From: Paecilomyces variotii | Lineage: Eukaryota | DNA length: 64,000 bases | Reading direction: 5' to 3' (one strand) | Assembly: GCA_004022145.1 (NCBI GenBank) | Contig: RCNU01000008.1 | Part shown: piece by piece, positions 947 to 25,316 of the stretch | Layout: every line of letters begins with the position of its first letter | Position numbering within the stretch: the stretch's first letter is position 1 | Program-made: the position numbers and the translations under genes | Notes under the pieces: generated by a model | Database searches by the model: none | The model's input: the letters and a program-made list of their open reading frames with translations, nothing else | What the model was told of the DNA's origin: nothing

Positions 947-3241
947 GCGGAGAAACACGGCAGAATACGGGAGACATGGGTCATGTGAATCATGTAATGA
1001 TCACGATGCAAAAACTCCGAGCTACTTCTGTAGAAGCTTAGACAATTATGAAATGATGTTTTCAATAATCCTTTTGAGACTTGAGTAGATTGTATTCGCG
1101 CGTAGACCGTAGCTAAGATTTGTCTCGGTGAGTAGTACAATTGTTAAGGTACATCATTACTATCATATATGATACGAGTACTTATGTGCTCCATGTGTAC
1201 GCCATGAGTTCCCATAAGAATAGCCTCGATGCTCAACTGCAGTCACACCCTGTATAGTAGGCTTAGTAGCTAGAGCAAGTAAATTAAATACTAGAGATTA
1301 ATCCCTGTAGATTAACCGGGTTTGAGTAATCTTGGAGCTAATGAAGATGCTTGATTGAGTTAACTACCTGTTATCTGGCCATTACTCTGCTGACTAAGCT
1401 GGCTGCTGGCGCTGGCGACCGCTACTGGAGCCCCCAGGGGCACCGAAATATCTTCTTATTTCTATGCGAATAAGTTGTATTAGAAGAACACAGAATCCAT
1501 TTCAAGACCTATTAATAGCATCCTCTGATACGGGCATGCATAGCCGTATTATAATGTCTTTCTTATCTTTTAACTGTCTGGTTAGACAGACCACCAATCC
1601 TGGAAGTTGCTCGTTTACATTGCCATTAAAAGCGTGCTCATTATGCGGATCTTGTACCGGCACAAGATCTTAGAGGAGTAATGCTATATATGTCCACAGT
1701 TACGTAGACGCGAATGGCTCACTAAAAGAAATGGTGAGGTCGGCAGACCAATGCGGAGCGGTCCCAGTTTGAGATCAGTTTCTGGCATAAGTACTATATT
1801 CGAGAACTTTTGTTAATAGTGAAACGGAATTAACAAATGCTAGTTATATGGCAAGTCTGACCTGTGGGCAGCATGGCAGGGCATGTTGGACGTTGCGACT
1901 GGTATTAGTTCCACTCGCGATATAATTACCTCGCCAAAATATATGAGTTCTTTACCTAGACTCCTTAATACAGAACTATTTGCATAAAGCTGTTACTCTT
2001 AGTCTACGATATTTCCAGTTAGGAGTAGTAGTAGCGCTCGATTTAGCTGCTCTAGCTACTCAGCTCGCTATAAGTTTTTCTCTCTTATGTAGTAGATCTA
2101 CAAGTAGCGTGATAAGTAGCAGTATATTCAAGACTGTACTGTACATACATGCATTGTTCCAGTCGCACTCTGCTGGTCACGTGACAGTTCCTTGTCGCCC
2201 TTGGGGCTAAGCCGCTCCGCGGTGCGATACCTCAGCTCTATATAGCGATATGGAGTGCGCTTTACATCGGGTGATATGTACTTCTTTCTGTTCGACGATC
2301 TCGAGAGTCTAGAATATATGCTTGTATTCTGGCTCTTCAACTATTTGCACATTTTGGAAACAGAGTGGGCAAAGATGAGTATAAGTCTGCGCAGTTTGAG
2401 AGAACACAACAAGGCAAGAACCGCCGTCGTTGGCACAATCGTTAAAGTTATGTCAAAACGTTCTACCACGCTCTAATCTGCTTCAGACCTTGGACTATTT
2501 GTGTATCTCTCCCCGACTCTTCTCTCTCTCTCTCTTTCTTTCCTTTCTTTTTTAACTGAAGGAGTGGGAGCTTATAATACCTAGGTACCTAACCTATTAG
2601 GGAAGAACACATAGTAGATGGCCCATACCACTAAAGCCACGACTAGCGCCAGGTAAGGAAATAAATCCTTTGAAGTCATAGAATAAATAGTTGATGTTGA
2701 AGGTACAGACTCTATCTGCGCCTGTTTCTGTTCAGATTGACAGAACCTACATTAATAGGTATGTATACTCATTTACCTTGTATAGATGTGCTAATGTCCG
2801 GCGCCGCTGACGCGTTCCATGTGGATGGATTGAATCATGCGCGAGACGCGTGATGGCAGACGCGCTTGCTTTCACCTTATGTCGAGTGTGCCAGTGCTTT
2901 CTTTCTTTCTCTCCTACCCACCCACTCCGTATTATATCTCTAGTCTCTCCCCGTGTACTCTGTTCTCTACTGTCGTCGTACGAAACGAGCGTTACCAAGT
3001 TTAATCACAAGAACCAACCTTTACTCTTCTGCTTACACCAATACACGCACGCGTCTGTTGATCTGTTTTCGATCTGATGAGAATCGATGACTCGCTGTCG
3101 CCAGAACACGAGACACACCAGATCGATACTTCGATTTGAAACTAGGTAACGTCTCAGGCTCTTCCGCGCCTATACTACTGCAGTATCACTATTACAATAA
3201 CATTAATCACAGGAAAAGGCTTACAGACCGTCTGTGTTCAA

Positions 3242-3329
3242 CCTTCTACCAGGGAGGTATCAAGAGAGATAGCTCTGTCTGGTGAAGGGTCAGATGGAAG
3301 CCGCCCGGGTGAGCCATTCTCACACCCAT
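3242..3329 (+). promoter_or_regulatory. Conserved structured leader element, copy A (upstream of GIY-YIG gene)
   Basis: ccttctaccagggaggtatcaagagagatagctctgtctggtgaagg...cccgggtgagccattctcacacccat is near-identical to the reverse complements of 16530-16619 and 22841-22931. It folds into a long hairpin plus a small hairpin over a GTGAGC donor-like site. Confidence 0.75.
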
Positions 3330-3896
3330 GATACTACTACTTTTTTTTTTGTTAGTCTTTCTATTCCTTTTTCCCCCTATGTTATTTTTGCAATTTGAGT
3401 CAGAAGAGATGTCATGCTACGTTACAATCATTCGTTCGAGTATAAGGTGAGGCTTGCCCGTACCTAACAAGTGAACATGGATCCTCTTATTTCTGGATAA
3501 CTGGCTGCACTGAATCATTCTTGGTTTACAATTTAGAGCGATACTACAATGCCTGTTGATCCGGACTTAGGTTGCTAGTGACGCATCTCCCTTTACCTGG
3601 ACCTTGAGAATCAGTGATCGAATAATTCACCGCAATGATGGAATTCCATCAAACATTTGGTAAGGCATAGCCCGACGAGCCAGTTAGAGAAATACTGAGA
3701 TTATATTATTTTTACAGAACCGATGGATAGCAGCAATATCGTCCACACGTGATGCTGCAGTTTTCTCTCCTCCTAATATGGAAGTGCCCCCACAGAGGCC
3801 GGACCCTCACTCTCTCCCCTCTTCTTCATCAAATCGACTTTCCCAGGTAGACAAGAGGTATCTCTCAATGCGACTTTCGTCTCAAACTTCATCATC

Positions 3897-5745
3897 ATGG
3901 CCGTCCAGATGCATGAAAGATTCCAGGAACGTGTTTTGCAAACTCTCAGTTCCCTCAGGAGCCTTGAAATGTCAGATGAGTGGAATATTACTCTACAAGT
4001 CTGGGACGATGAATACCTTCTCTCCTACTTCAATACATATACAGCAGAGCCTTTAAAGCACCTATTAGATACACATAGTCCTCCTACGTTTGAAGATTTG
4101 AAAACTCTCGACTGGCTGGATACTACTGATGCTGGGGTATATGCCCGTCTTATTTGGCCAACAATGGAAAAGTCCACTCCACATATCTATGTTGGATCAG
4201 CAACGTCTACAATGGGTGGATTATCGAAGAGGAAGTTAGATCATGAGTATCGTCCCATAGCACAACAGTAAGGATACTAATATATTATTTTGACTAATGA
4301 CTAACATTGACAGATGTGCATACTATAAGACATTGATGAATCAGCCCGGAGTTCCACGTACTTCCAAATTCGTTACAATATACACAATGGACTGGGGTTT
4401 ATGCTCAATTGATGATATAAATTTGAATCGAAAATTATGTTTGCTAGCAGAAGCTGTCTTTACTGCTATGCTGGGTGGATACATGCCAGTAGTAGACAAA
4501 CCTCTGCAACTGGCTTGCCCATATGGGGATCCCAAAACTGTATTCGACTGGAGGGGAACATGCACCCATTCTTCTCTCTCTGAAAGTCAGCGGCTTCTAC
4601 ACATACACAAAAAAGCGAAGAATTCCGCCAGTTCGAAACTCCCATGGTTCAAAGTGAGATCGGGAGCTCGGAGGAGGAAGGACCTTACTCCAGAAGAACT
4701 TCAAGCATGTCGAGAGAAAGACAAACTAGCCATGCGGGAATATCGAAAGAAGTTTCGACATCTACTCAAAGCAAGGAAAGCCAACCGTACCCCTCAGGAA
4801 ATAATAGAGCATAAAGAAAAAAAGAAGCTCTATCAACGTCGATACCGCAAGGAACATGCTATGGAAATTAAGGCGCGTGAAGCACTACTTCCTCCAGAGG
4901 TAAAAAAAGAACGTGCCGAAAGATCTAAACTTCGAACACAAAAGTCACGCTTGAAAAAACGCCTTGCAAACCCCAAACCTCCGCGGATCATACCTCCTCA
5001 CAGAGTTAAAAGAAACGCGGACCGGAAAAGACTGCGAGATGGTGACGTGGACTTTAAAAAGATCAGTATGCATGGAACTAGAGTCAAGCGCGCAAGAGAC
5101 GCTCTGAACAAGCTCAAAGTTGATGGTGTTGGTGGCAAGGAACTGGACGAAGCCAAGAAGAAATTCGCAATAGCATTCGTCGATCGGTACAACTTGATGG
5201 TCAACTTGGGGCGCCCTGTCAAAGAAAAGCCAAGTCAAGAGCAATTCGACCTAGCAGGACCCAGCGTGCAACCAAACAACAGCAAGTCTGCTGTTGTTTC
5301 TACAGGAGACGAAGTGGATGAATGTAGCGAAGAGGAAGACATCGATACGTCGGAGGAAGACATCGATACGTCGGAGGATGAAACTTCGGACAGCGAGGAT
5401 GAACTGGACACGGATGATGAGGAACTGTTTATCATTCCCCATGGACCCAACAAGGAAGGCAGCATACCCAAGAACGAATCCACCGTACCCCGCGATGCTC
5501 GAATTGACAATCATCTCGCCCCAGCCCCCGAAATGGTCAGTCCCTGGACGATAGCTGCCAAGACTACTGTCAAGAAGCAGGAAAAATCAAAGCCGTTCTT
5601 ACGCATGGCAAATGGTCCTGCTCTAAGCCACGAGATGACCACGCCCTGGACTATAGCGACGGACGCATTTCGCAGACAGCAGACGATCCTGGGAAGATCT
5701 CTCGTTAGGAACGAGTCTCCTTCGAGAAAACGAGTGAAACGGTAA
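3897..5745 (+). CDS. GIY-YIG family endonuclease (~600 aa); exons 3897..4267 and 4314..5745
   Basis: DAGVYARL...HIYVGSATSTMGGLSKRKLDHE matches the GIY-YIG core (GxY...YxG...R...H), with a downstream LAE that could supply the catalytic Glu. A 46-nt intron gtaagg...ctaac...cag joins the two ORFs in frame. K/R-rich helical repeats and an acidic tail follow. Start codon uncertain. Confidence 0.8.
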
Positions 5746-6779
5746 CGGTGGCAGTATGTTTGTGTCGGCTTTTTTTTTACACATGTATTTTACCGCTTTT
5801 GTACTACTTACGGCAAGGCCGGTCCAAACCTGCATATTGATATTATATCTTAATCTGAGCCAATCGAGTCCGGGAACGCACTTATATCCTAAGATCCCAG
5901 AAGGGGGAAGATGTAAAGAGCCGTCTGTATAGAACTGCTTTACTTTCTTATAGTAATGGTGTATATGAGTTGTCAACTTCGAACAAAGAAGTTTTGTGCA
6001 ACGGACAAGATGTGTCCGTCTCTCGGGAGCTCGCAGCGGGTAGGTTGTCGATTGATTAGTAGAATATAATATGTAATGCAGAATAACTGAAACTCGGTGA
6101 ATGAACATGTGTGAAGATCTAGGATGACGGAAGCAAAGATTCTGAGAAAGCATATGAAAAGGGAATGATCTCTGGATTGCTTGAAGAACTAATTGACTCC
6201 GAAATCTACCAGCTATTCATGCTCCTCGACTTTACACAAATGCCTCGGCTGTTCTGAACTGAGCTGAACACATAATTAAACTGATCCATGGTCCCTCTCC
6301 CGTCTTTAATGATTCCATGCAGGTCGATGCAGGCAGCTACCCGTTACAGCTGTTACCCTGTTTGCATAGGGGACACAGCAGCGGAACGCAGCAGGTTTGC
6401 AGCTCGCCCCTGCAGGAGACGCGGGATCTGACAACATGGAGCCAGTTCTTTGAACAGTGAAGATACAGCCGCCACTTACAGAGCAATTAACCGTAGCATT
6501 GGACATTGACGGTGACGCGAATTCCCTGCGTAATACCGAGTCAGAAGTGATTGTAAATGTGTGGTGCATTCATAAGATATTACCCCTCATTTACGGCTTT
6601 AAGAATCGCTAGTTTTTACACCAAATCTGACCTTCTCTTTCCCCAAACTTTATACTACGCTTTGAAGTTTGAGTGCATTATGACTCTTATATATATACAC
6701 CGTTCTATATACATACCAGCATCTTTATTAACTCTCTCTTTCAATACCTGAAGGTAGACAGTCAGCACTTCCTCACAGA

Positions 6780-8070
6780 CGGGTCCATTCTGGTCGAAGC
6801 CTTTGCAGTGTCATCACTATATTGGGGAGACTTAGAAGGTTATTCCCAGGGCCGGCACTTGCTATAAGCATAGGAGAGTTCGACGAGACAGTTTAGAGAA
6901 GGTAATTGCTGAGACTCTGCGAAGATAAATTACCAATGAGCATCGTTAACAAGGCCGCCGGTGAAGAAGGCAAACTATCTCTATAATGAAGATCGCGATT
7001 CAATGCATCCGGAATTGGTGACAGAACTGTTCTTCAACTTCATAAGGCCAGTGTCTGAGGATACTGAACCATCACGGATCTGGAAGAATATGTGTGGAGA
7101 AGTCATATGGCGCAACAACCGACTTCTATAGCACAGGTCTCCGTTATGGCTACTTGTTCGCGCTGGCATACGATTGGTTAGATAACGAATATCTGCGAGA
7201 ACGAGTTATCTTTATATTTATATTTCGAACATTAGCAGGCTGTCTAGTCAACGCTTTTATAAAATTTTTTGAAAGAGCCCTGAACGCTGGCTTCGAGGTA
7301 AGCAGAGAAAGCAAACGTTTCCCTTTTGATGTGCATAACTGACATATCCAAAGGATCAACCACGCATACTGTCAATTCGCCTGAATGTGACCACCGGTGA
7401 CTCTACTCTATTTAACTTGACATTAATCTTCACTTGCTGAGTTTACGCTCATTTGTACGAAGTTTCCATGGCTCTTCTAGCTCTACTGACTCGAGTTCAT
7501 TCACTTATCTATCAAGGGGAAACGCTGTCATCGTTATCGACCATTTCCTGGAAAATGTCGTCTTCCCCCTACACGCAAAGCATTTCAGAACTAAATTACA
7601 GATGTCGGGTTGGGATATCCCTCTGTACAATGACAATCAGACCTCACCGTCCAGTGATGATACTGGGAATATTGGAAACAGAAGAGGGTCCTCACATCTT
7701 GTCCTTGATATTCAATCACGTCGTGTTCCCACCAAAGCTTCCACCCAAGATAATCAACATGTCATTTCCTTCCTGTACCTGCAGAGGTACAATGAAGTCG
7801 GACACATAGTTCCTATAGACGATATTACAGAACCGAAGAGACATGAAGCTGAGCTCAGTCAATCATTAACTCTCGGACTGAACCAAATTAAGGATCACAC
7901 AGTGCAAGGTACGTATTTATTTTGCTCCCTATATTATCTATATTTAGTTCTTCTGCGCACAAGTTCTAATGCATCTTCTCTAGCTATAATGAGATTATAA
8001 ATAAAATAAGAGCGCGCCGTGGCCAACGAAGCTGAAGAAAGAGAAGTGCAACGCCCATATCTTCTTATCC
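6780..8070 (+). pseudogene. Fragmented relic of a large DUF6606/DUF3638/DUF3645-type fungal gene
   Basis: Motifs recognised across broken frames: GRLRRLFPGPAL, KKANYLYNEDRDSMHPELVTELF, EVIW..*HRSPLWLLVR (6780-7180); DHFLENVVFPLHAKHFRTKLQMSGWDIP (7540-7622); LIFNHVVFPPKLP (~7705-7745); *ERAVANEAEEREVQRP (~8007-8057). Family assignment is from memory of these motifs. Confidence 0.65.
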
Positions 8071-8149
8071 TCTATATACCACCTATTATCAAGAGAATGC
8101 AGCGCTTTAACTGTCTCACCTACTATTATATTCCCGAGTCTACCTATAG

Positions 8150-8720
8150 AATAACCCTCTATAGCTTCCTGTTAAAATTGGTATATTAATAAGAAAGAAT
8201 ATACTTTAAGCTTTTAAATATATAAGTTTAATAGATTGCTTTTAGTCTTAATAAACTAAAGTTAAAATATTGCTTAAATTTATCTAAGAACAGTATTTTT
8301 TTTATTGTTCTGGTTAAAATATCCTATATACCCTAATAAAATTTATATATCACAGTCTTCTATCTGACGCAGGCCAATATAGATAATAAATAGCCAACAG
8401 ATTTACCGAGGCGTTAGGATAGATTAAATCTAAGGCATTTCTCACAGTATTATGCTTTACGCTAAGGGGCAGATAGTATTGAATCGCTTTAATACCTCTA
8501 TTTCTGGAAATTATTTCAAAAATTTCAATAATGCGGCTTATACAGTTCCAGGGCGGGGGGTATAATAATATTAGACAAATTATACGCTCTAGTATCTAGC
8601 AAGATATCAACGCCTAATAAACAAGAAGGCCAAGGATACTCATATTATTTTAACAGATATACTTCGGCATTTTTACTATCCACATTAGACGATGTCCAAT
8701 GATAATTATAAATGATATAT
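8150..8720. other. AT-rich, TpA-rich patch typical of RIP-mutated sequence
   Basis: Runs such as cttttaaatatataagtttaatag and ataaactaaagttaaaatat; no open frames, unlike the GC-balanced flanking genes. Confidence 0.6.
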
Positions 8721-9084
8721 AAGACAGCCGGTCAGCAGCAGAAAGCTTGCGAAGAAGAAAAGAAAAAAAGGGTATTCCCCATCTCATATTCCAATACTAC
8801 ATTGTGCCTTTCTCCAGCAAGCTCACATAATGGTTTACAGGTCTCTTCTGGGCCAATGGGCCGGAAAGCCTGACGATTGCAGTTACTCACGCTCTCTATA
8901 CCAAAGGAAGATGCTCTTACATTGTAAGAGGCCATCTGCGGAGATTGATCTTGATCTTTTTTAAGACGCCGGGTCCGCTGTATAGACCTCCGAAAAGGTG
9001 ATTGTCCCCAAGGACGCAGCCTTAGCCTTTCTAGCTCTACTGATTCAAGCCTATTCATTTATCTATCGATATAAAAGGCAAACG

Positions 9085-9612
9085 GATCGTCTAATCTTTG
9101 AAGCGGCATCATAGTCGACTGTGGAGTCATCGAAGCTCGAAACTGGGACTTCTTCCTTCAAGCACACATTGCCGCCCTCTAAGGAACCGCGCGATCAGCG
9201 CACTACCACATCGTCCACGATGAGATATTCCACCCTGGAGCATTCACTATTCACGAGTGATAAGTCGACTTCTCGGAATCTCCCCTCAGTCGTTCGACTT
9301 TTCCATTTGTCTTATTATCACATCATGGGATTACCAGTTCTCAATGGATGCGGTTTGGTTTTCGTGCTTTAAATAAAACGTCCATCATTCGTACCACGAA
9401 TTTCATCGACTGTAACTAGGAGACTTTCGAGGCCAGGAGACTCGAACAAGGTTGTTCTTCCATTTCTTTCTCTTCGAAACCTTCCGACACGGCCGACGTT
9501 CTCGAGGATCTCACGCACAATATGTGCTATCTCTTCGACCGCGCTACCAAGGCCGTATATCTGCCCACCAGCATACTATACAGATCTGACCTGCGAGCGT
9601 GCCCAATGTTAT
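9085..9612 (+). pseudogene. Argonaute (PIWI domain C-terminus) pseudogene fragment
   Basis: IVDCGVIEARNWDFFLQAHIAAL*GTARSAHYHIVHDEIF (to ~9230) and ADVLEDLTHNMCYLFDRATKAV/ICPPAYYTDLTCERAQCY (9492-9612) match conserved fungal QDE-2-like PIWI motifs. One stop (CAA>TAA), one frameshift and ~260 bp of unrelated sequence lie between them. Confidence 0.9.
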
Positions 9613-10211
9613 GCCTGGGCTCCGGTCACGGAAGATGAGCTCTCATATATTGCCCTTGGTATTCAATCGCGTCGAGTTCCCACCAAACGTTCCAGGCACA
9701 TCAGACCATTTTGGGTTTGTTTGATTGCTTAATACATACAAGCAATGTGTTTAAGATGGTTAAAATCCTATCCTGCTAGCCGACTATTGATTTTTCCCTT
9801 ATATGGAAGACTCCCTCAATCATACTACCTGTTGGACACCGAACGGTAAAGTTCATAACTACTCCGATTCTCTCCTTATTCTTCGCGGAACATTAGCGTC
9901 ATATCAACGATGTTCTGAGAAAACAGTGACATCTCCATTCTGCCCGTATACTCCAGAATGTATCGCTTTGTGAGCAGTATAGTATATATGCATCCGAGTT
10001 AAAGAGAGTTCGGGGATCTTAGCAGACGAGCAGTATTATATTGTTGAGTCCGGTACATAGGGAGGAATCCGTCGAGACAATTCAAACAACTATGATCCGT
10101 TGTATTCATCTGGGATATGAGAATACCGCTGTTTTGATGTACAAATCTGTCGGCGTATGTTAAACATTCTCCTTATTTGTTGCCGTACCTCTGTTACCTC
10201 GTGAGCAACAT

Positions 10212-12023
10212 CTCTCGGAGGCACGCGAAGCTGAAGCTGAAGATGCTTAGATTCCTCTATGGGATCGAGCTCTGAAGCTCTAGCTAATCTATCTATCTGT
10301 GCGAAGCATTAAACCCGAAACGGAAGGAGGCAGGCGATACCTATCCGCCTGGCCCTACAGGCCCAAAGCACCCCCCTGGACGCCTCCTGAAGTCATAGGC
10401 AGTTCCTAATCCGGAAAATGGTCAATTATCTTGATGTTCGTTATGCTAATCCCCTGAGCCAACATGCTTAAGCTCAGATCTGTTTTAAGGTCTTATCCTG
10501 ACGGATTGAATCTGACCCAATTTAACGTCTGATCTGGACGGGTCTGGCTGTGATTTTGGCTGGTTAATGTCGTATCTTGATGGGGTGCTCGAGCGTTTCA
10601 TACGCGGAGGGGTCGTTGAATCTGATCTGGTTTGACGTCTGATTAGACGGGTCATTTATTCGTGAGGTGGTGATCGTATTTAACGTCTAGTTTGGACGGG
10701 TCGTTCGTTCAGTCGTCATCTTATTTAACGTCAGGTCAGACGGGTCGAATCTGAACCTGTTTAATGTCCGGTCAGGACGGGATGTTGAATTTGATGAGCT
10801 AGGGCGAGCCCTGCGAAGCCGTGAAAGCGATACTGATCTTTGTTGCTCGCTTATATTTGCTATTGGTTAGGTAGGTGCCATATATCGCTGTATGGCTTCT
10901 AACCTTGTGAGATCTCCTCCATCAAGCAGTAGCAGGTATCTGAACCGTAACCTGGTCTATAACAGTGTCCGCACTTCCCTATGATACAAAGCTTCCTATC
11001 GCGGAGCTCTCTGGTGTATTTGTAGGGGTCCTTCCCCTTTGGAGGACCTGCGCCATATTCTTTTGATATCTGGGACTTGTCTGGTGTTGCTTTGTTTGAT
11101 GTCGCTTCGCTAGATATCACTATTACCGCGGCGAGGTTTAGTTCACTTTTTTTTGCCTATATTAATGGCTTCACGACAGCGTTGTTGGAATTCAGACTTT
11201 GTTATAGTGGTGGACTTATCCTTTGGCCATAAGCAGTACTAAGCTATTGTCTAGTTGGGTAGTTCGTTCTCGAGTTCTTCAAAGAGGAGTATGGCGGCAC
11301 ACCACGGAGTGATGGTAAGGTTTAGCACGTTGCCAAGCGTCACGGTAGGCGATAACGAACTGTTCAATCGATCCATATTAATGTCGATGTGTTTTTACCG
11401 ATGCCTTCCAAACGGTGCGAAGTTTTATATGTCCCTCCCCCATCACGATTGTTTTTATCGCATTGATATATTCGTTGGTGTAGATCGGTTCATTAGGGAG
11501 CTGACGGAGTTCCTCTATGATCTCGAGGTCGAGCTGGGCTGTAATCTAACTTCTTATTGACAGAGACATCCTCCTCCACCTATTATACGCGTCTTGATCG
11601 GTACTGCTAGGGGTAGGTCTGGGACAGTAGAGTCAATAAGGTTCGAGCAGTCAACCGCTCGAAGGACATCCTTAACGAGGTAGAGCCAAGTGTCAAATTT
11701 GGTCTTCGTGGTGAGCTTTTGAATGCCGTCGATTTCCTCTGGCACCTTCTCTGGTAGGCCAGTTCCTGGATGAGCCAACTTCGAGGATAACTGGCGGGGT
11801 AGTAGTGCTGGTGTTCGACAGGTGGTAGGTAGGAGGGGCAGATCCTGCAGAAAGCAGGTCTGGTTCAAGAATATAGTCTCTGCGGTATCTAGAGCTGCTT
11901 TTAGTCATAAAAAAAATCATGAAAATGAAGCTATTCCGGGCGCATAACCTCTCCGAGGCACGCGAAGCAGAAGATGAAGACGCTTAGATTCCTCTATGGG
12001 ATTGAGCTCTGAAGCTCTAGCTA
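10212..12023 (-). mobile_element. Non-autonomous gag-only retroelement-like relic with 75-bp direct repeats
   Basis: Direct repeats 10212-10286 and 11949-12023 (5 mismatches in 75 bp). Internal minus-strand ORF pieces: copia-gag-like IQKLTTKTKFDTWLYLVKDVL...LIDS (11554-11868) and degenerate zinc knuckle KCGHCYRPGYGSDTC (10899-11120). No TG..CA ends or pol seen. Confidence 0.55.
10480..10785. repeat. Array of ~7 degenerate 23-24 bp repeats (TTTAACGTC-N6-7-GACGGGTC) with variable spacers
   Basis: Copies at ~10485, 10521, 10562, 10631, 10679, 10724 and 10760; the best-preserved copies contain an internal CGTC/GACG inverted pair. Confidence 0.8.
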
Positions 12024-12379
12024 GTCCTCAAAAAGTTGCCTATTAAAGGAACGTCCTGACTCTAAAGTACAGTGGCAATGATTTTGTGTATCATGTCTCG
12101 AACTATTGCAAACTTATACTTATCTTTCCCTACTCTGTTTCACATGTGTACATGGATGGAGAACTAGGATCCGAAGATACAGTTCATTCGTGGCTAACTA
12201 TCTCTGTCTGTAATATCTTAGACAGTGCTAGCTCCATACAGTCAATTTCCTCCGTTATGAACTGATCTTCTTTCCCGGCCCACAGGATCCATGTCAGTGT
12301 CGTTGATCCATCTCCAGTCTCATTCTCAGACCATCGCTCTTCTGCCTGTTTTTCGTCTTGCGTGGTGGTCCGCGTGTAG

Positions 12380-12421
12380 GTAGTCGGTAGTCGGTAGTCG
12401 GTAGTCGGTAGTCGGTAGTCG
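12380..12421. repeat. (GTAGTCG)x6 heptamer microsatellite just 3' of helicase 1
   Basis: Read directly from the sequence. Confidence 0.95.
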
Positions 12422-12477
12422 GTAGTAGGTGTACTCGGTTGTCGATCGTCCTTGTTGAGGTTACACTCATGGCCTAC

Positions 12478-15400
12478 CTACCACTTGGCGTCTGTCGCAT
12501 CATTGAACTTAGACTCCCACTTCGAGGCGTCATCCGGTTGCTGTGCTTCCTGCTCCCATGCACTATCCTGTTCCTGCAGCTGCGCGCCCTCCTGTGACTG
12601 CTCCTGCTCCTGCTCCTGCGCCTGTTCCTGCTCCTGCGCCTGCTCCTGCGCCTGTTCCTGCTCCTGCTCCTGCGACTGCTCCTGTTCCTGCGACTGATGG
12701 TGCACATACTCCGAGGTCACTGGATCTCCAGTGACCTCGTATACCGCATCTCGCTCGTATAGATGCTTCCAGTACTCAACAATCTCGATTGGCTTCTGTT
12801 CCGGCTCAGCGTCGCTATCCCTCTTTCTCTTCAGTTTCAGTGCACAGCCTGTGATGCAGCCCTTCCCAACCACGATGAGACATTCTTTCGCACGCGTAAT
12901 CGCCACATTGCAGCGATTGTTGTTCACGGTGAACCCAAGGTCCGCGATACGCTCGGCGCTAGTAACCACCCAGTCTAGGATCACGCATTCTGCTTCGTGG
13001 CCTTGCATTGAATCGACGGTCGCGACCTTGGCAATGTCGCGCCATGCAATACGTTTCTGTGTCGCGAAATTGATCAGAGCCGTCACATAACAAGAGCGCT
13101 GTTCTGAGTACGGGGTGATGATAGTTACATCACCACCCTGAGACAGTGCCTTGCTATCAAAAAGATAAGATAACAGCTCCATCACGACAGCAACGTTTTG
13201 CAGGTTGTATCGGGACTTGTTTCGAGGCTCGACCTTGTCCTCGCCATTCTTTACATCAAGGGCGATGAGATGTAGATCCGGCTCTCTGGATGGGGTGGGA
13301 CAGATTGTCCTCAACCAGTTAAGCAACCCAGTTTTCAATTCTGGGCGCATAGGATGATCCTCCAAGCCGCTCTCCGTCTTCATGAGCCCGTTGTAGGTAA
13401 AAGCGCTGGGAAATGCTGCCAGGTCGGGGTGCATGCGATGCTGGACGTTCAACATGCAAGAAGGAAATCCTGCTTGGAGAAGTCGGTCGAACAGCGACCT
13501 CCCCAGTTGTTCGCTGAACTCATTCAATCCAGGCGAGGTAAACGCGGACACAACAAGAGGCGGTAACTGGTGTCTGTCGCCTCCTCGGATCGTCCCTCGT
13601 ACCAACTGGGCCTGGTTCAGTGAAACGAGCGGTATCCAGGCATTGGGTTCCACTGCCTGTCCATCTTCGTCGGCTATGACGATGATACCTTTGCATGGAT
13701 TCGCAGGGTCTGCCGCGAAGTTCTTCCTGATCAGATCAGTGCCGGCCAGGTTGTCCGTACAGGACACGATCCATGCCTCCCTCACCACAACTTCCGAGAT
13801 TTCGTTGTACGCGCGTCGGAACTTTGCCTGTTCTTCCTTCCACGCAGCCAGTTCTCCAGTGGCGTTTTTGTCAGTGGGTCGCAGAGGAGGGTTGCAGAGA
13901 TAATTCCAGAAGTAGCTGTAGGCATCAAACTCGTCACCGGGAACGCCATCCACTTGTCGTGCTATCATGAGTTTCTCCCCCTTTGAGATGGCAGTCGTTG
14001 TGCGGCGCCTGACGTGCTCGAAGAAGGTGTACTTCGGGTCTCCCGCTATGCGTTTATGGTAGGATTCCTTGGCGTCTCGGAGCACGGCTGCAATGACAGA
14101 GTCCCTACTGGTCGGAGCATCCGGCGAAACTTCTTCGTGGTCAGGACCATCCGCCGACAGGACACCTTCCAGGCGAGCTTGACGAACTCGCACATAGTCA
14201 ATTGAGCCTTGAGTGAGACTGACCAGTCTCTGCGTAATTGCGTCTACGGACGCGTTGCTGGGACTGACGATCAGAACGTGGAGTCCGGCCAGGTGGTACA
14301 ATATCACGAGGGCCGCGAGGACCGTCGACTTTCCACAGCCAGGGAAACCTTCGACGAGACCGATCCTGGATGTGAGGTTGGCGGCCATATCGAAAACCTG
14401 CCGCTGCTGCTTATTCCAGGGCTTCAGGTGGAGTACCGCCTGGAGAGCCACCTGTACCTTCTGAGGGTCCAGGCCGTCAAAGGGGTTTGTCTTGCTGAGC
14501 AGACACGGCTCCTGGTTCAGGAAAGCCATGTGCCATGTTGGGTCTTCCCGTAAGTGTGACAGTGCGTTAATCTGTCGTCGGAGTGGCGCTTCATTCTCCT
14601 CAAACTTGAGCGATGCAGCCTGAATGAACCTGAGTCGCTGGCCAGGCACTGAGAAGATGTTCTTGTAGCGCAGTATCTGTTTTCCATAGATGGCGACATG
14701 GATCTGACCCTCACCGATCCCTGCGTGGTCCGGAACTACCAGACCGCGACAGACGATCGTGGACTCTTCACCTTCTGGCATAAAGGTGATCTCAACACGC
14801 GTGCTGTCGGCAATCATCAGGTCAGTTTGCTGGAGGGTCAAGGGGAGGAGGCCATCGTTGAGCTGCGATCGGTCGATGTAAACAACAGCGTATACAACTG
14901 AGTTATCGTAAACCACAAACGCAACCGACGCATTTGCGTTGACGACTCGCTGGAACTGCATAATACCCACACGATAGTCCAAGTCTGCACCGTAGGTGAG
15001 TTTCACGCTGGCTTCCTCAATATCATGGAAGTAGTTAGCAGCCGGAACTGCACAAAGCTGACCATTCCAACCTTCTGCGACCTGCGCTCTTGGCACTAGC
15101 TGTCCAGCCTGGCATCTGATGTTTCCCACCCTGGAGCGATAGGGAAACCATGCGCGGGTCCATGGCAAGTGCTCGGCGAATCCCTGAAGAACTTCGACGA
15201 AGTTTCCTGCGTGCTCAACCTCGTCCGGTTTGAGTGGAACCCGGACATGCACCTGCCTCCTTTCCCGTGAATGGGAGGAGGTGGCCGCGTACAGGAATTC
15301 CAAGAACGCGATCGTCAGCTCATCCATCTTATCCTTCTTCTCGTTTGTGAATTTCAGACCGGTGGAGATGCCGCCCGTCGTTATGAACTTCACGTCGATG

Positions 15401-16211
15401 TAGCAAGGGTCGCAGTATTCTCCGTTCTGGTCTCTCGAGAAGATGGGTCTGCACACGAGATCAGAGACCTCGCGCTTCTGGACATCCGGGCCTGCGTGTA
15501 AGTCGAAAACAAGTGAAGCCCTGTGAACAAGGTTCACAGGATGCCACAAGCCTCTCTGGATGTTGCGGGTGTTCCTGACGCAGATTTCGAAGACTAGCTT
15601 CGGTGCGACAGGGCCCCCAACTATCTCCATCGTCACACTTGCACCGTAGAGACTGGCTCCAGGAACAGTGGGGTACATTTGCCTGTTGTCCGCAAGGACA
15701 AACTGAACGTGTCGTTTTCTGGGCCCCAGGAATCCAGTGGACCGACGGTGCTCCAACGGCACGAGGACCCAGTCCTCCACAGACTTATTTCCAGCAGCGG
15801 GCTTGGTCCTTTCTGCCGGGAACGTACCCTGATAAAAGTTGCATTAACCCATGGTCTCTCAAATAAGCCAATCTATTGCACTTACCATCCACATATCACT
15901 GGTCATCACAGTGTCTGACGCTATATCCTACCCTATGTTAGATTTGCATAACATGATTTGAGTTGCCGACCATCCGTGAGAGCGTACCTTGCCGTTATCA
16001 GTAGAGGCACCGGTGTTAACAGGAACACCGGTATCAGCAGGTGATTCTATTTCCATTTCCGTGTTGTCCCATTCGCTTTGAATATGCTTCAAGAACATAA
16101 CATGTCAGTGTTTGCAAAATATAGAAATGACACACACAAGAGAAGGTTTCTGATGGTATAACATACCTGTTCCTGTTCCTGAGAGACATGACCATAATTA
16201 AAAGCATCCAT
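12478..16211 (-). CDS. Upf1/DNA2-NAM7-like superfamily 1B helicase (copy 1, apparently intact, ~1170 aa)
   Basis: Motifs EGFPGCGKST, VSPSNASVD, ADEDGQA, GGDRHQLPP, SLFDRL, QHRMHP, ITPYSEQ, TVDSMQGHE, RCNVAITRA. Predicted upstream exons 16211..16167, 16086..15988 and possibly 15927..15886 splice in frame to 15828..12478. C-terminal QE repeat. Confidence 0.88.
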
Positions 16212-16227
16212 TTTTGGTCTTGCTGAG

Positions 16228-16412
16228 AAGATGGGAGATGCTAGATGGGAGATGCTAGATGGGAGATGCTAGATGGGAGATGCTAGATGGGAGATGGGAG
16301 ACGGGAGATGGGAGATGGGAGATGGGAGATCGATGATGGATGATGGGTGATGGATGATGGGTGATGGGTGTAAGAAGTGAGAAGATGGAAGTGAGAAGAT
16401 GGAAGTGAGAAG
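16228..16412. repeat. Heptamer-based array (GATGGGA/GATGCTA/GAAGTGA) in the predicted leader intron of helicase 1
   Basis: Read directly; pyrimidine-rich on the sense (minus) strand, ending at the acceptor cttctcag (16223). Confidence 0.85.
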
Positions 16413-16529
16413 TGAAAAACGAGGGATTTAAGCAGGGGAAGACAGGGAGGACTGGCAGAAATAAACAAAGAAAATTTTTTGCACTGAAGTGTTTGTTGGA
16501 TTAAAAGAGTAAAGAAGTGAATTAGAAAA

Positions 16530-16619
16530 ATGGGTGTGAGAATGGCTCACCCGGGTGGCTACTCGCTGCCCCTCTTCACCAGACAGAGCTATCTCTCTTG
16601 ATACCTCCCTGATAGAAGA
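16530..16619 (-). promoter_or_regulatory. Conserved structured leader element, copy B (upstream of helicase 1)
   Basis: Reverse complement is tcttctatcagggaggtatcaagagagatagctctgtctggtgaaga...cccgggtgagccattctcacacccat. Confidence 0.75.
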
Positions 16620-18462
16620 TTGCCATGAAAGGCTAGAGCAGGTTTTACCGCTGTTTTAGTGATAGAGGCTGTTTTCTGTTATAGAAACTGTCGTATGGAG
16701 CTCTGCAGGAAAGGGGGGGTCTACATGCCTGACTGACTGCTCAAGACGAGGACACATATAGCGATGACGATTGTTTGCAGGTTGTAGTGATGGGAGATAG
16801 TGGTCCCTTCAAGACTTCAAGAAATAAGGGCATGCATTGATGTAGCGGATAAGGAGCCATGACTGCGACTGCCTAAAAGAATGGCAATACGTCGTGGCGA
16901 TCAATAGGCACTCGTTGGATGTATCGGGAGAGGTGAGTCGACGTTGGAGCTGGTCGACTTGATACCTAACTTGCAATCCATAATAAGGAGTTCGTCTTCA
17001 TAATGACTATAAACGCGCTCATTTGATGAAGATCAGACCAGGTTGTAATAGTAAAGAAAATTAGCAGCGGTAATGACCAGCACAAGAGGCTATTTAAGGT
17101 GAAAATTCGACGGAGTTCTCCGCAGGGTCCCCCCCCCCGAGAGGTTTTCGTAGTGAATTAGAGATACAATGAAAGGTGACGAACCTAGAAAGTTGTGGAA
17201 TGGTCTCAATTATACGGGGTAGTCCGATTCGCTCGAGCTTCACACCTGAGAAGCGTCTGTTTTTGGCCTTGCAGGTGTTTACGAGGTCTGGCGCGTGCTC
17301 ATAGTCTGCCCTGTCTTCGTGGAACTTCGTTCGTGGGAAGTCTCAACTGCTGGGCAGAGAAGGAGAAAAGTGGTATGTAGAAGTCTGTGTTTCTCTAATG
17401 CTAAAGGCCTCGCTACATACAGGAGGTCATGTGACATAAGCTCATGTGAAGGAGGGACGTAACGTCAACGCTTAATCCCACTTTTCGTGTACTTTTCTTA
17501 AGTAGACCTTAGCCAAAAAGTCTACACGATACAGCTAGGGAACTTCTAGTCGCCAGATTCAGTGATGAGAGATCTGGGAGCGCCCCTGCATCGTGCAATG
17601 AACTGAATACCAAATGATGATTAGGAAAGCCAATTGACTGGGGGTAAAGACCCGGCCTGACATAGCTCAAGCAGTCAATAGATTGCAACGAAAAGCAGCG
17701 AATCGCGATGACGACAAGATCACGGCAGCCAAACATCTATTTCGATGTCTAGGATAGCATACTGAATACGAGATCCTACACGGCAAATTGAAGTCTACGT
17801 CGATTCTAGTCATTAAGATAACCGGATAGGAAGTGGACGGAAGCACTTGTCATTCTATTCATGGGATTACCGATAAGCTGGTCTAGCAGGAAGCAACATG
17901 TTGTATCACCGTTTGTAATTTTGGTCGAATCCTGCGCTTGAGATTTCGTGATATTATATGTATAACTTGCATTATGATAATGCTTTCAGATAACCTCAAT
18001 CGCTATTAGACGAGGCTACTAATGTAAATACAGGATTGTATTATCGACGCTGAATTGTATATCAGAATAATTCGAAGTGATTGTTATTCAATAACTGTTC
18101 CAGTAAAGTAGAGTGGCCTTAGGATTTCCATAATGCCCATGTTGTCAATTTGATAATCGATCGTCTTGTCGCGATTTATTGAGATGAGCCTCAAACTGTA
18201 AGAACTTTCTAACAATAACTCGGGAGTACTAATTTATAGTGTGGTCGGGTCTACGTCTCGTTATTAGGAATAAACCACGAACGAGCTCACTGTTGGTTAG
18301 GATTGCATTTTATTGAACTTCAGACCTAACTAAAACGCTCGAAAGTTGCAACAGTCTGCCATACTGGTCCGTACTCCGGAGGTTTTCTCTGTTTGCACGA
18401 AGAGAGCCTAGATACCACCGACGCGCCACGCTTGCCGCCCTTTTCGTTCTTCTTCTTCTTCT

Positions 18463-18464
<2 letters not shown>

Positions 18465-18501
<37 letters not shown>
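18465..18501. repeat. Poly-T run (~37 nt; poly-A on the minus strand)
   Basis: Read directly; lies ~230 bp downstream of the helicase 2 ORF end. Confidence 0.9.
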
Positions 18502-18734
18502 CCCTCCTTCTTCACCCCATGACGGTTGTTTCAAAAGATCGATAGAGAAAACTCAGCAGCAAGTTCGCCTTGGTCTGTTCGGCCCGACCTTGATCCGCTT
18601 CAATAGATATCGGCGTCCCTCTGGTCCGCCCGTGTGTCCGCTCCAGAGATACCATCAGACGCTTCCTGAGGCTGGCCAAGATCCTGAGCTTGCTCATCTT
18701 GACGCTCAGCGTTCGCTGCTTCGTGTGTTTCGGC

Positions 18735-21700
18735 CTAGGTGTACTCGTCCGAGGTAGCCGGCTCTACATATACCGACTGAAGAGGGTAGCAAACATCCTT
18801 CTTAGCCAGGTAGCGCCAGAACTCCAGAACCTCCGGCGGCGGCTTCACATCACCCTTTTGCTTAGAATTGGCTTGCTGCTTGGAAGCATAATCACCACTC
18901 AGCATTCCCACGTTTCCCACATTGATAAGACAAGATCGCGCTCTGGTGATACCAACATTGCACCTATTGTTATCAACAGTAAACCCGAGATCGCTAGGTC
19001 TGACAGCCTGGGAAACAACCCAGTCGAAGATAACACAATCCGATTGATGCCCCTGCATTGAATCAACGGTGGCAACTTTCACCATGTGCTTCCACTGAAC
19101 TCCCTTTGTTGCAGCGAGCTCTATTAGGGCCTTGATGTACCTAGACCGCTGCTCGGCGTAAGGGGTGAGTATGGTGACTGAGTATGTAGTAAAGTCAAAC
19201 TTAGCAGCCATTAGGTGCCGGATGAAATCTACAACGACCTTACAATTGTGGCCATTGTACCTGGAGTTGCTAGCTTCTTCTATTCGATATACTCTGTTCT
19301 TAATGTTGAGAGCGATGAGCGACATGTTGTCATTAGCAAAAGCCATCTGGCAGCCCGCACGGGCGTTAATCTAACCTCGCAGGTTCTGCTCAAAGATGGG
19401 ATTGATTGTGAGATCATGCACCGATGGATCATCCTCCAACATTCCTGAGTATGTGAACTCGCATGGGAATCGGGAGATCTCGGGTCTCATCCTATGCTGC
19501 TTTCCGATAATGTAAGACGGAAAGCCGGTCCGCAGCAGACGATTATATAAAGAGCGGGTTAATTGATGAGAGAACTCATTTATACCTGGACTTTGGAAGT
19601 CTGAGACGACAAGAGGCGGAAGCTGATGGCGGTCTCCACCGCGGATTGAGGCCTTGACGAACTTTGCCTGATTGAGTGACACTATAGGAATCCACGTGTT
19701 TGGCTCAACTGCCTGGCTATCTTCGTCGCTGATGACGACGATACCTTTGGTGTCTGTACCGAAGTGCTTCCGAATTCGCGGTGAACCAGCCAGGTTGTCC
19801 GTGCAAGCGACGATGCGGGTATTCTTGACGATTTCGTTCGCGATAGCTTCATAGGCTTTGCGGAAACGTGATCGCTGTTCCTTCCATAAGTCCAACTTCT
19901 GGATTCGCTCGGAATTGCTCGGAGATTCAGGTTTTTCAGGAGGGCAATCAATCCAGTCACGGAACACGGAGTACGCTTCAATCACCTCACGTGTATCCTT
20001 CTCAGCGGACTCATCCTCGTCGTTGTGATCAGAACCGAGGGCAGGGTCCTCTTCCAATTCCTCATCTTCCTCCTGTCTGATACGTACAAGGAGCCTTTCT
20101 CCAGCAGCGAGTTGCTTCCTGGCGTGGCGGTCGACGTGAGAAAAGACTGAATACCTCAGATCGCCCTGTGCTTTCTGGTACTGGGAGTTTTTCAGAATCC
20201 CTAACAGATTGACAATCGAAGTTTTAAAGTCCTCTACCGATAGCTTATCGTCTTCATCGTCGACTTTCTTCCCAAATATGGACGTCCGTTCAATTGTTGC
20301 CTGCCGGATACAAACGTAGTCGATTTCGGGCGCCATCAACAGCAGTTCGGAAGTGAATGCGTCGACAGTAGCATTTGAGGGTGTGACGATGAGTATATGC
20401 AGTCCAGCCTTGTGGCACAGAAGGGCAAGTGCTGCAAGAACAGTGGTTTTTCCGCACCCGGGGTATCCTTCGATGAGTCCTACACCACCTCTCAGTTGCC
20501 TGATCATCTTGAACACAGCCAATTGCTGGTCAGTCCAGTTCTTCAGATGCAGAACCGCGTCGAATGCTGCCTTGACAGTGACTTCGTCAAGTTCAGCGAA
20601 AGGGTCAATGATCTCCATGCCGCTCAACTCCTGGTTCAGGAAGACAGAGGTCCAGAGGTGAGAAGCAGTATTGTGAAGGAGCTCGAGACAGTTTACCTGT
20701 CTCTTGATCGGAGCGTTATTGTCAGAGAACTCTACATTTCCAGTACACCAACGGAGTCGATCTCCAGGAGATGTGAGCAGACCCCTTGCCTTCTTGAAGA
20801 TTGATGTGCCGTGTATTGCGATATAAATATCACCCTGCTTGATTGACGCATAGTCGGGGATGACAATGCCGGCTACGGTCTTGTGGTTGAAACCTTCTTT
20901 GGGACAGAAGGTCACAGTCACTGGCGTGTTGTCGGGCACCACCACATCAGAGCCGCGCATGATCTCAGGGACAAACTTCTCATTGAGCCCTGCCTTGTCG
21001 ATCTTGACCACAGCAATGACAGACTTCCCAGAATACGAGACAAAACCGATCTTCGATTGTTTCTTCGAAAGTCGGTTCAGGTGAAGCTTTTGCACTCTGT
21101 CCTCCAGCACCGCGCCGTACGCGAGCCTAACATGACCGTCGTCAAGGTTATGGAAGAAGTCGCTTGCTGGGAACGCGACAGGGTTCCACCTCTGGAAGAC
21201 GTCCTGGCGAGATGCGAACTGTCCGTATATACATCGGATCAGATCGGACCTCGCGCAGTACGGGAAGAACGCTCGCTGTAGAGGTCGTTGGCGGCTGATG
21301 GATCGAAGGGCATCGCGCATACCCTTCAATCTGTCGCCAGCCACGTCCTCGGCGTCGACATACATGCGCACACGAAGAATCCGTGCTTCAGTAGACGTGT
21401 CATACGTGAAGCTGTTCATGTGGCGAAGAAGGTCCACCGTCTCGACATCGAACTGCTCGTTAGTGTGGCGTAGGCCACACGAAACGCCGCCGTTCGTCTT
21501 GAACTTGATGTCGATGTAGTTTGACTGCTCGGTCGTTTCTGTCCCTTCAGCGCCCGGCGCGGCAGATGTCTTGTCCTCCCACTCGAATTCGGAGACCTCG
21601 GATCGATGAGGGCCCATCATGCTCGAACGAGCAGGTGGGTGCAGATCGAACTCGAGGTATGCGGTGTGCATAAGGTTGATGGAGTGCATCAAACCTTTGC

Positions 21701-22281
21701 TTATGTCCTTGACGTTCCTGACGAAGACCTTGAATCGTATCTTCGCAGCCACAGGACGACCGACCACCGATATCCGAACGTCGCTTCCTTTGTCCTTGAT
21801 GAATGGTGTCTCTGGGATCAAGGAGCCGTCTTCTCTCACGAACTGGACAGAACGCGGCATCGGACCATCAAACAGGATGCGCTCTTCCGACTTCCTATTT
21901 CCGAGATCGCGGAGCATCTCCTCGTCCTCAGTTCCATCAAGACGCTGTAAGTTGTCAGTGGCAGATCTGTGGAGCATGTGTGTTTGGAAACTCACGGGGC
22001 CATTTTGTTCAATGACTGGATCTTGGACTAACTCTGCGGTATCCTGTTCGACGTGTAAGCACGATAGACCTATCTCGTTAACAATTTCTGCATGGGAACC
22101 TACCATTTGCATGGTTCCTGTCTCGACAGTTTCAGGTGCAGTCTCGGTCTGGGGAGCCTCAGTTTGGGGAGTCTCGCTTGGGATTTCCATATCCCATTCA
22201 GAAGTTCCAATCTGTTCGTGGTCTATTTAGTTTTGATCCATGGTGGATATGGAAAAGACTCTTGCTCACCGGATAAGCCAT
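18735..22281 (-). pseudogene. Upf1-like SF1B helicase (copy 2) interrupted by one in-frame TAG at 19373-19371
   Basis: Motifs EGYPGCGKTT, SDEDSQA, GGDRHQLPP, QHRMRP, LTPYAEQ, TVDSMQGHQ, RCNVGITRA. ORFs 19371..22190 and 18735..19346 are in the same frame; the TAG aligns with a Trp of copy 1. Predicted first exon 22281..22270 (MAYP), intron 22269..22212. Confidence 0.8.
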
Positions 22282-22325
22282 GATGTAGGATAAATTACCG
22301 GATAGTTCGCGAATGGAAAACCGGA

Positions 22326-22640
22326 GATGAAAGATGAAAGATGAAAGATGAAAGATGAGAGCAGAGAGCAGAGAGCAGAGAGCTGAGAGCAGAGAGCTGA
22401 GAGCTGAGAGCTGAGAGCTGAGAGCTGAGAGCTGAGAGCTGAGAGCTGAGAGCTGAGAGCAGGCAGATGAAAGATGAAGATGAAGATGAGAGATGGAAGA
22501 TGAGAGATGGAAGATGAGAGATGGAAGATGAGAGATGGAAGATGGAAGATGAGAGATGGAAGATGAGAGATGGAAGATGAGAGATGGAAGATGGAAGATA
22601 GAGATGAAAGATGAAGATGAGAGATGGAAGATGAAAGATG
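22326..22640. repeat. Heptamer-based array (GATGAAA, GAGAGCA/GAGAGCT, GATGAGA-GATGGAA) upstream of helicase 2
   Basis: Read directly from the sequence. Confidence 0.9.
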
Positions 22641-22840
22641 AGCGTTTCTAAGGGGAGACGACAGGGAGAGATGACAAAGAGAGACGAGAAGAGATGTAAC
22701 AAAGACGAGAAGACGCGAGGCGAAGAAGTGAGAAGTGAGGGATTTAAGCAGGGGAAGACAGGGAGGACTGGCAGAAAAAAGAGAATTCTTTGCACTGAAG
22801 TGTTTGTTGAATTGAAAGAGTGAAGAAGTGAATTAGAAAA

Positions 22841-22931
22841 ATGGGTGTGAAAATGGCTCACCCGGGTGGCTACTCCCTGCCCCTCTTCACCAGACAGAGC
22901 TATCGCCCTTGATACCTCCCTGATAGAAGAG
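22841..22931 (-). promoter_or_regulatory. Conserved structured leader element, copy C (upstream of helicase 2)
   Basis: Reverse complement is ctcttctatcagggaggtatcaagggcgatagctctgtctggtgaagag...cccgggtgagccattttcacacccat. Confidence 0.75.
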
Positions 22932-23759
22932 TGTCTTGAAAGACTGGAGCAGGTTTTGCCGCTATTGGTATCAGTGACGAAGGCTGTCTTCTCAAAGACT
23001 TCGCTATACGAACTATCGTATGTGGATTTGCGGCTGCGAGAATGACATACCTGAATAGCTGCTTGAGGCCTTTTCACGTTATGGATAGTGATCGTTGTTA
23101 AAGGCAACCGCAGTCGTTACTCCCATCTGTGGACTGTCTTGGATGAAGGTGATGGATTCTTCAGCCTTTGGGACGAGAAAATCATTGGTATCCTGTGGTT
23201 GCGAGGTCTAGGATAGGTGTCAGCTACAGCAAGAATATGGCTAATCGAGGGGGTAGCGACAGATGCCTTCTTAGATATATCTGACGAAGATCCCCTTTAG
23301 GGAACTGGGACACGAGGTTGTCAGAGGTTGAATCTTGAGAGGTGTGTCTCACCTCATAATCCAGCCAGCCCCCCCAAAAAGAGTGTAACCAGTCAAGCAC
23401 TTTCGACAATCAGGATGGTTTCAGCAGATCCGTTTGAAAACTATAAAGTTTAGAATTCAAATCATCCCATATGTGTACTCAGTGGCCACAGGTGGGGTCA
23501 GGTTGTAATGAGGCAGATGCACTGTGGTTAAAGGAGGTGGAAAGTTGAAAGAATTATGGATTCAGTGAGAGATATGCGAAGCAGGCACCGCTTCTACGGG
23601 GTTCTCCGCCCAGATTCTTTGGGAATATCCGCTTTGAGCAGTCTCGGTGAACGGCAGATCTTATTCACTCAAGTCCAATATCTGCTGGTGTCATTTCCAT
23701 TCATCAAGAAGCTTAGAGAGCATATATACGATGTTCTCTTCTACCTCTGGTGCCACTTC

Positions 23760-25034: not shown

Positions 25035-25316
25035 GCTACAACAGGTACAAGTCTACTCCTGACAATGCATTATTGAAAGTATCATTTTATGAAGTCTAAG
25101 CCTCTAGCTAAGTAGGTAGCTTAAAGCCTCGGAATCGTGATCGTCACATGACTCATATCTCCCCCATTCTGCCAGGTGTAACCGCTTATTTCTTGGTAGC
25201 CTTCTGAGCAGCCTTGGTGACCTTACCGGCACCACCGGCGGATTTCTCAACAGACTATAGAGAAAAATGTCAGTTTTTGAACACGAATTTGAGCGTTTGT
25301 AAAGGAAACTCACCTT
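25035..25316 (-). pseudogene. tef1: Inverted tef1 3' fragment (AAG + last intron + last exon + 3'UTR)
   Basis: Reverse complement reads AAG|gtgagt...aattcgtgttcaaaaactgac...tatag|TCT GTT GAG AAA TCC GCC GGT GGT GCC GGT AAG GTC ACC AAG GCT GCT CAG AAG GCT ACC AAG AAA TAA, with a 3'UTR alignable to 947-1110. Confidence 0.95.

Follow-up and report, generated by a model that had tools for sequence, protein, structure and literature searches.

The 64-kb window analysed here, a single stretch of Paecilomyces variotii contig RCNU01000008.1, carries three copies of a non-coding element of about 90 nt, each of which is located upstream of a gene. Copy A (3239..3330, plus strand) precedes a gene at 3897..5745 (plus strand) that a first-pass annotation of this DNA had called a nuclease, while copy B (16529..16622, minus strand) and copy C (22839..22931, minus strand) precede two helicase genes, helicase 1 (12478..16211, minus strand) and helicase 2 (18657..22281, minus strand). 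The first 47 nt of the element form a bulged hairpin (3242-3288 in copy A, 16573-16619 in copy B, and 22884-22930 in copy C, where two loop bases are altered), which is followed by a variable linker and by a second conserved part, module 2 (3304-3329, 16530-16555, and 22841-22866, respectively). The helicases, the nuclease-like genes, and the element copies are all contained in an accessory island of about 24 kb. According to the sequence comparisons described below, the block is probably functional and tied mainly to the two helicases.

The places of the three copies, as given in the first-pass annotation, were borne out far beyond chance. When up to three mismatches were tolerated, the 38-letter and the 26-letter core pattern each matched precisely these three places in the window, and none of 100 shuffles contained a match. 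A covariance model made from the three copies, run unfiltered over the whole 64 kb, assigned 114-126 bits to its training copies and 9.4 bits (E 0.9) to the next best place; no further copy was found in the window, including the 39 kb of housekeeping genes to the right of the island. An exact-pattern scan of metagenome contigs with a core of 23 specified bases gave no match. All copies lie in sense orientation 300-600 bp upstream of a gene, as had been claimed, with gaps from the element end to the start codon of about 568 nt (A), 319 nt (B), and 560 nt (C), one of which was checked against an annotated protein. The comparison with Rfam that had been proposed earlier returned no family for the element, neither at gathering scores over the whole window nor at E up to 10 on 3150-3450, which covers copy A, and ARAGORN found no tRNA-like gene or tmRNA. 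A coding reading of the element was rejected, because a 2-nt indel between copy A and copies B and C shifts the only open frame; a search with the 84-aa translation across the element among proteins of 46-147 aa, in that frame and length only, found none.

The two genes downstream of copies B and C are, by their domain content, Upf1-like SF1 (superfamily 1) helicases with both AAA_11 and AAA_12. Helicase 1 matches AAA_12 at 1.3e-41 and AAA_11 at 2.3e-22, and three short 5' introns were placed in it by eye. Helicase 2 is its paralogue, with 39% residue identity over 869 aa; it matches AAA_11 at 1.8e-23, and its AAA_12 match is divided by an in-frame stop. The N-terminal 470 residues of the helicases represent a rare family, which was found in 53 of 1.84 billion representative clusters at E <=0.001 and in four at 1e-30. 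The stop codon of helicase 2 (19371-19373, minus strand) lies between the two helicase domains, where helicase 1 reads on. Helicase 2 may be a pseudogene on this sequence, and its 5' flank is nonetheless 92-95% like that of helicase 1.

Of the sequences that are duplicated within the island, the element is by far the best conserved in our alignments, with 87-95% identity, compared with 76% for a duplicated gene tail at the island borders, 67% of nucleotides for the nuclease-like pair, and 39% of residues for the helicases. The likeness of copies B and C extends from about 16741 and 23063, respectively, down to the start-codon region, which makes up a homologous 5' flank of about 330-515 nt. 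Because both copies sit in this one flank, they are not independent and are counted here as one evolutionary sample, so that three copies give effectively two independent sequences. Along the flank, the identity between B and C is 59% far upstream, 78% from a TATA-like hexamer to the element, 95% within the element, 92% over the next 120 nt, and 74% over the C+T-rich heptamer microsatellites that follow. Uniform likeness would be expected of a young copy or of one conversion tract, and the gradient suggests constraint instead. Recent segmental duplication was rejected as the source of the likeness between B and C, the coding regions being just 39% identical.

Copy A is 89% identical to B and 86.5% identical to C over about 90 nt, and its flanks are unalignable with theirs. 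The changes between A and B fall on 4 of the 73 module positions (two of which are indel columns) and on 6 of the 17 linker positions (Fisher p 0.0026), and those between A and C on 7 of 73 and 6 of 17 (p 0.015), for module and linker regions that were set after the alignment had been seen. The first-pass annotation had suggested a shared cis-acting RNA or single-stranded DNA signal. Conservation above that of the coding regions, together with substitutions that spare the modules, argues for a constrained, shared cis element, which may act as RNA, as single-stranded DNA, or as double-stranded promoter DNA.

The hairpin proposed in that annotation is present in every copy. Its folding energies in copies A, B, and C are -22.3, -18.3, and -18.3 kcal/mol (z -3.9, -2.9, and -3.3), and at most one of 200 shuffles was equally stable (0-1 per copy); for the 90-nt element as a whole, the margin over shuffles is modest (z -1.35 to -2.1). 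The sense strand (-18.3 to -22.3 kcal/mol) folds better than the antisense strand (-10.8 to -19.2 kcal/mol) by 3-7.5 kcal/mol, because the C>U changes keep G-U pairs. On thermodynamic grounds, the 47-nt hairpin thus behaves as a structured cis-acting RNA would, being more stable than shuffles and strand-specific. In the alignment of 47 columns, 16 of the 18 pairs are invariant, one shows a one-sided change (C-G to U-G), and one, the terminal pair, differs on both sides (C-G vs U-A), so that all stem changes retain pairing. The one-sided change is the C>T substitution that had been described as keeping a G-U pair, and the alignment also confirms that the changes of copy C lie in the loop.

Possible promoter and splice signals are arranged alike around copies B and C. 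The extended 5'-flank block of helicase 1 (16407..16701, minus strand) is homologous to that of helicase 2 (22723..23026, minus strand), and both contain a TATA-like hexamer (TATAAC at 16678-16683, 64 nt upstream of B; TATAGC at 23003-23008, 77 nt upstream of C), the element, and a candidate intron of 67 nt (16484-16550 and 22795-22861). At copy A, an A+T-rich run is found 35-50 nt upstream. Each 67-nt candidate intron begins with GTGAGC, continues with a branch-like CTAAT or TTAAT, and ends with CAG. A crude intron pattern, which asks for a branch motif and a 3' YAG within 45-90 nt of a 5' splice site, was passed by 53 of the 314 5'-splice-site-like hexamers in the window, those of B and C included. 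GTGAGC is also the 5' splice site of the first coding intron of helicase 2, as read by eye. Between these blocks and the helicase start codons (16209-16211 and 22279-22281) lie C+T-rich heptamer microsatellites (16226..16406 for helicase 1 and 22296..22722 for helicase 2, both minus strand) that have no ATG in sense; from the element to the start codon, no ATG occurs at all, where 3.0 and 4.1 would be expected from composition. The microsatellites of the two genes differ in unit sequence.

We favour, with a probability of about 0.4, a reading in which selection preserves the block as a cis-regulatory cassette, not a dispersed repeat, placed where the helicase transcripts begin: a non-coding first exon that carries a hairpin, together with a GTGAGC 5' splice site. 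Transcription would start about 60-80 nt downstream of the conserved TATA-like hexamer, near the 5' edge of the element, and the element would supply a first non-coding exon of about 66-69 nt, the first 47 nt of which form a cap-proximal hairpin. The GTGAGC 5' splice site would then open the 67-nt intron, and this site would be spanned by the invariant 26-nt module 2, which might form weak pairs across it. The amount of helicase mRNA that is translated or correctly spliced could be set by the hairpin together with a factor bound to module 2, and both diverged helicases would thereby come under the same control. Copy A may represent a detached cassette before an unrelated gene, left behind when rearrangements duplicated segments of the island, and instead of belonging to the mature leader of the downstream gene it may drive a transcript upstream of that gene. 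A more elaborate proposal takes the element as a new, private leader RNA, the 5' hairpin of which, with a splice site kept within module 2, is read by the Upf1-like helicases of the island, which would regulate themselves by unwinding it, or else as a DNA target cut by the GIY-YIG-like protein, with repair keeping the copies alike while the genes diverge; we regard this as quite improbable.

Several observations weigh against a transcribed, spliced leader. Covariation in the hairpin is not significant, as 167 of 500 shuffles equal the observed value in an alignment of three sequences, effectively two independent ones. The sole pair that changes on both sides is terminal and stands at the edge of the conserved block, adjoining the 2-nt indel. 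In an alignment of 100 columns, RNAalifold counts zero compensated pairs and leaves the second hairpin out of its prediction. The compensatory changes announced in the first-pass annotation come down to one terminal pair of 18 and one C>U that retains a G-U pair, and significant helix covariation of the kind expected for a structured RNA was not found in these three sequences, two of which are non-independent. A second hairpin had also been claimed to cover GTGAGC; this module 2 hairpin (GUGAG/CUCAC) can pair weakly (-7.5 kcal/mol), but in copy C, where a C is changed to U, another pairing folds best. Copy A fails the crude intron pattern; its sole candidate intron is 47 nt long and has a poor branch site. 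A G content of 11% accounts for part of the lack of ATGs before the helicases, and 13 ATGs (10 expected) occur between copy A and the downstream start codon, which makes copy A unlikely to be part of the working leader of that gene. The C+T-rich tracts lie directly 5' of the helicase start codons. In filamentous-fungal promoters, transcription usually starts at C+T-rich tracts, and starts there would leave the element as untranscribed promoter DNA. Finally, every element is followed, at a distance of about 100-110 nt, by a second TATA-like motif (TTAAAT at 16426-16431 for copy B, with a counterpart at copy C; TATAAG at 3441-3446 at copy A).

Part of this evidence fits a promoter module instead. 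On this reading, a dimeric factor would recognise the two imperfect palindromes of the element (e.g., via CCCGGG at the core of module 2) and activate or repress transcription from an upstream DNA site, some 130-400 nt 5' of starts in the C+T-rich tracts; the helicases and the former or present neighbour at copy A would thereby come under common transcriptional control. The C+T-rich tracts before the helicase start codons and the TATA-like motifs downstream of every copy agree with this, as do the variable distance to the start codon (319-568 nt), the 13 ATGs after copy A, and the failure of copy A to pass the crude intron pattern. Copy C is intergenic with a divergent gene remnant, as in bidirectional promoters, and a gene for a Zn2Cys6 fungal transcription factor (25919-27172, plus strand), a candidate regulator, adjoins the island. 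A stretch of 73 near-invariant positions, on the other hand, far exceeds the usual site of a factor, and in duplex DNA the bulges and G-T positions of the 47-nt dyad put its half-sites out of exact spacing. Pairing survives the C>T changes on the sense strand alone (-18.3 vs -11 kcal/mol for the antisense strand), and the three copies, which count as two independent cases, share the same orientation towards the gene. An untranscribed promoter module is less likely than not, and nearly as likely as the leader exon.

The element might also be a functionless repeat or mobile fragment, such as a solo long terminal repeat (LTR), a foldback resembling a miniature inverted-repeat transposable element (MITE), or a conversion tract, too short for repeat-induced point mutation (RIP). 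It occurs in three copies, its edges are fairly sharp in copy A, and the island contains other short repeats and an A+T-richer stretch. Short repeats, below a threshold length, escape RIP, so that under active RIP a repeat of 90-330 nt could persist where longer duplicates decay. RIP is active in the species carrying a protein identical to the product of the gene at 3897-5745 (PMC6300479). Such a fragment would not be expected to diverge unevenly, whereas the linker differs at 6 of 17 positions and the modules at 4 of 73, and the identity between B and C forms a gradient. The inverted repeat is confined to the 5' half of the element, a target-site duplication was not seen at any copy, the 64 kb hold no other copy (none in the 39 kb of housekeeping genes), and the exact core is missing from the metagenome collection. 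The terminal inverted repeats at both ends and the target-site duplication that mark a MITE or foldback transposon were accordingly not found, and the suggestion that the element co-mobilises its genes finds no support here: no terminal inverted repeats span the unit, no target-site duplication is seen, and no extra copies occur in the window. We consider a functionless fragment improbable.

It is very improbable that the block is a small RNA gene in its own right, about 90-110 nt long, transcribed independently with 5' and 3' hairpins and a T-run as terminator, and located upstream of these genes by mere coincidence. Conservation has its 3' edge at a run of five T in B and C, a run of about ten T (3341-3350) begins about 11 nt past the end of copy A, TATA-like motifs occur 35-77 nt upstream, and the edges of copy A are sharp. 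Against such a gene stand the lack of any Rfam match (the window at gathering scores and 3150-3450 up to E = 10) and of any tRNA-like gene in the ARAGORN result, as well as the conservation between B and C, which continues for 120 nt beyond the T-run at 92%. Internal A or B boxes were not noticed by eye, no dedicated test having been applied.

Two metatranscriptome runs from food fermentation, X4 and X7, contain fractions of 0.70 and 0.65, respectively, of the words sampled from 13000-22999, so the helicase region is expressed; this word share is about the coding share of 13000-22999 and does not resolve the element itself. DNA or RNA contigs under two other organism labels contain 0.55 and 0.31 of the sampled 31-letter words of the same region, which suggests that near-identical parts of the island may exist under more than one species label. 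A helicase-based search of metagenome contigs yielded 346 pattern matches, of which four were confirmed (24-41% identity over 54-126 residues), none with a usable upstream region. Database relatives of helicase 1 (P0007 and P0010, 69-76% identity) are short mosaics in which N-terminal pieces are joined to C-terminal helicase pieces, and their appearance suggests an origin in gene copies of related genomes that were rearranged or have decayed. Helicase 1 itself ends, at its C-terminus, in a Q/E-rich repeat encoded by a tract with 12- and 18-nt periodicity (12543-12716, minus strand).

The gene downstream of copy A has two exons, separated by an intron at about 4269-4315, and no recognised domain. 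Its product corresponds to a hypothetical protein of 593 aa from Paecilomyces variotii, with 100% identity over the region searched. Neither exon matched Pfam at E up to 10, and no match was found in NCBIfam, in PADLOC, or by sequence in PDB, so that the label of nuclease is without support from these searches and is a guess. The leads towards it are sub-threshold Atlas hits (0.78) to Eco29kI and GIY-YIG clusters and a motif likeness read by eye, and no profile match placed the protein among GIY-YIG nucleases. In a single-sequence AlphaFold model, the predicted local distance difference test (pLDDT) score is below 50 over residues 1-216, with a mean of 48.4 for this N-terminal domain, which makes the model unusable there. 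A decayed paralogue of the gene (23769..24341, plus strand; 67% nucleotide identity, 66% of residues over 114 aa) is divergent from helicase 2, and copy C lies in the intergenic region that the two share, upstream of the paralogue and antisense to it. The first-pass annotation had the element tie the helicases and the nuclease into one system; with 13 ATGs after copy A and copy C antisense upstream of the paralogue, this link is weak. Judged from listings alone, the literature on GIY-YIG proteins and helicases in Pezizomycotina has no such element apparent.

The accessory island itself is bracketed by the tail of an EF-Tu/eEF1A-family gene (825-1094, plus strand) and an inverted copy of it (25046-25308, minus strand). 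The two tails have 76% nucleotide identity and 54% residue identity over 70 aa, with copy A or copy C of the element about 2.1 kb away from each. To the right of the island, 39 kb are occupied by housekeeping genes. The stretch of 5800-12400 is A+T-richer (G+C 0.41-0.47), contains no long open reading frame (ORF), and carries several short direct repeats, such as 10200-10289 with 11937-12026 (88%) and, in pieces, 7466-7743 with 9020-9694. Searched for transposon domains, seven ORFs from 5.6-12 kb gave no Pfam match. A Starship captain gene was found in none of the ORFs scanned, and the Starship literature gave nothing specific to this locus.

If the element is a working leader or promoter cassette, two helicases that have diverged to 39% identity share one control, which would offer a handle on when a rare helicase family is switched on and would lengthen by one the short list of conserved 5' hairpin motifs in fungi. 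As a repeat fragment, it would be ordinary. The evidence comes from one genome window and does not allow generalisation.

The closest resemblance in form is to fungal hairpin motifs in 5' untranslated regions or near splice sites, of which SDC, ies6, hexA, and SART-1 were described from 12-34 examples in many species, with covariation (PMC5640933). According to that study, they too are short conserved hairpins just 5' of a particular gene family, some overlap the splice-site consensus, and a role in the control of translation or alternative splicing was proposed. The present element differs in being represented by effectively two independent sequences from one genome, with covariation that is not significant; helicases are not mentioned in that study (0 occurrences), and no Rfam model matches the element. 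Fungal thiamine pyrophosphate (TPP) riboswitches that govern the choice of 5' splice site in leader introns (PMC3597705 and PMC5882874) are likewise structured leader RNAs located at, or pairing with, a 5' splice site. No other class of RNA switch that controls splicing is known to be established in fungi. The element contains neither a TPP aptamer (Rfam negative) nor a junction resembling a ligand pocket, lacks the breadth of evidence available for these riboswitches, and consists of a 47-nt hairpin and a weak 7-bp stem. With MITE, foldback, and solo-LTR fragments it has in common that it is short, non-coding, repeated, and close to genes, with an inverted repeat inside the unit, but here the inverted repeat occupies the first 47 of about 90 nt and does not span the ends, the copies share no target-site duplication, the divergence is non-uniform, and within the window no copy lies outside the island. 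Promoter or leader cassettes of duplicated genes, maintained by selection or gene conversion, offer a further parallel, since there too the 5' flanks of paralogues are far more alike than their coding regions. Compared with these, the contrast in our window is unusual, with 95% nucleotide identity in the element against 39% in the proteins, and the 90-nt core is found in the flank of an unrelated gene as well.

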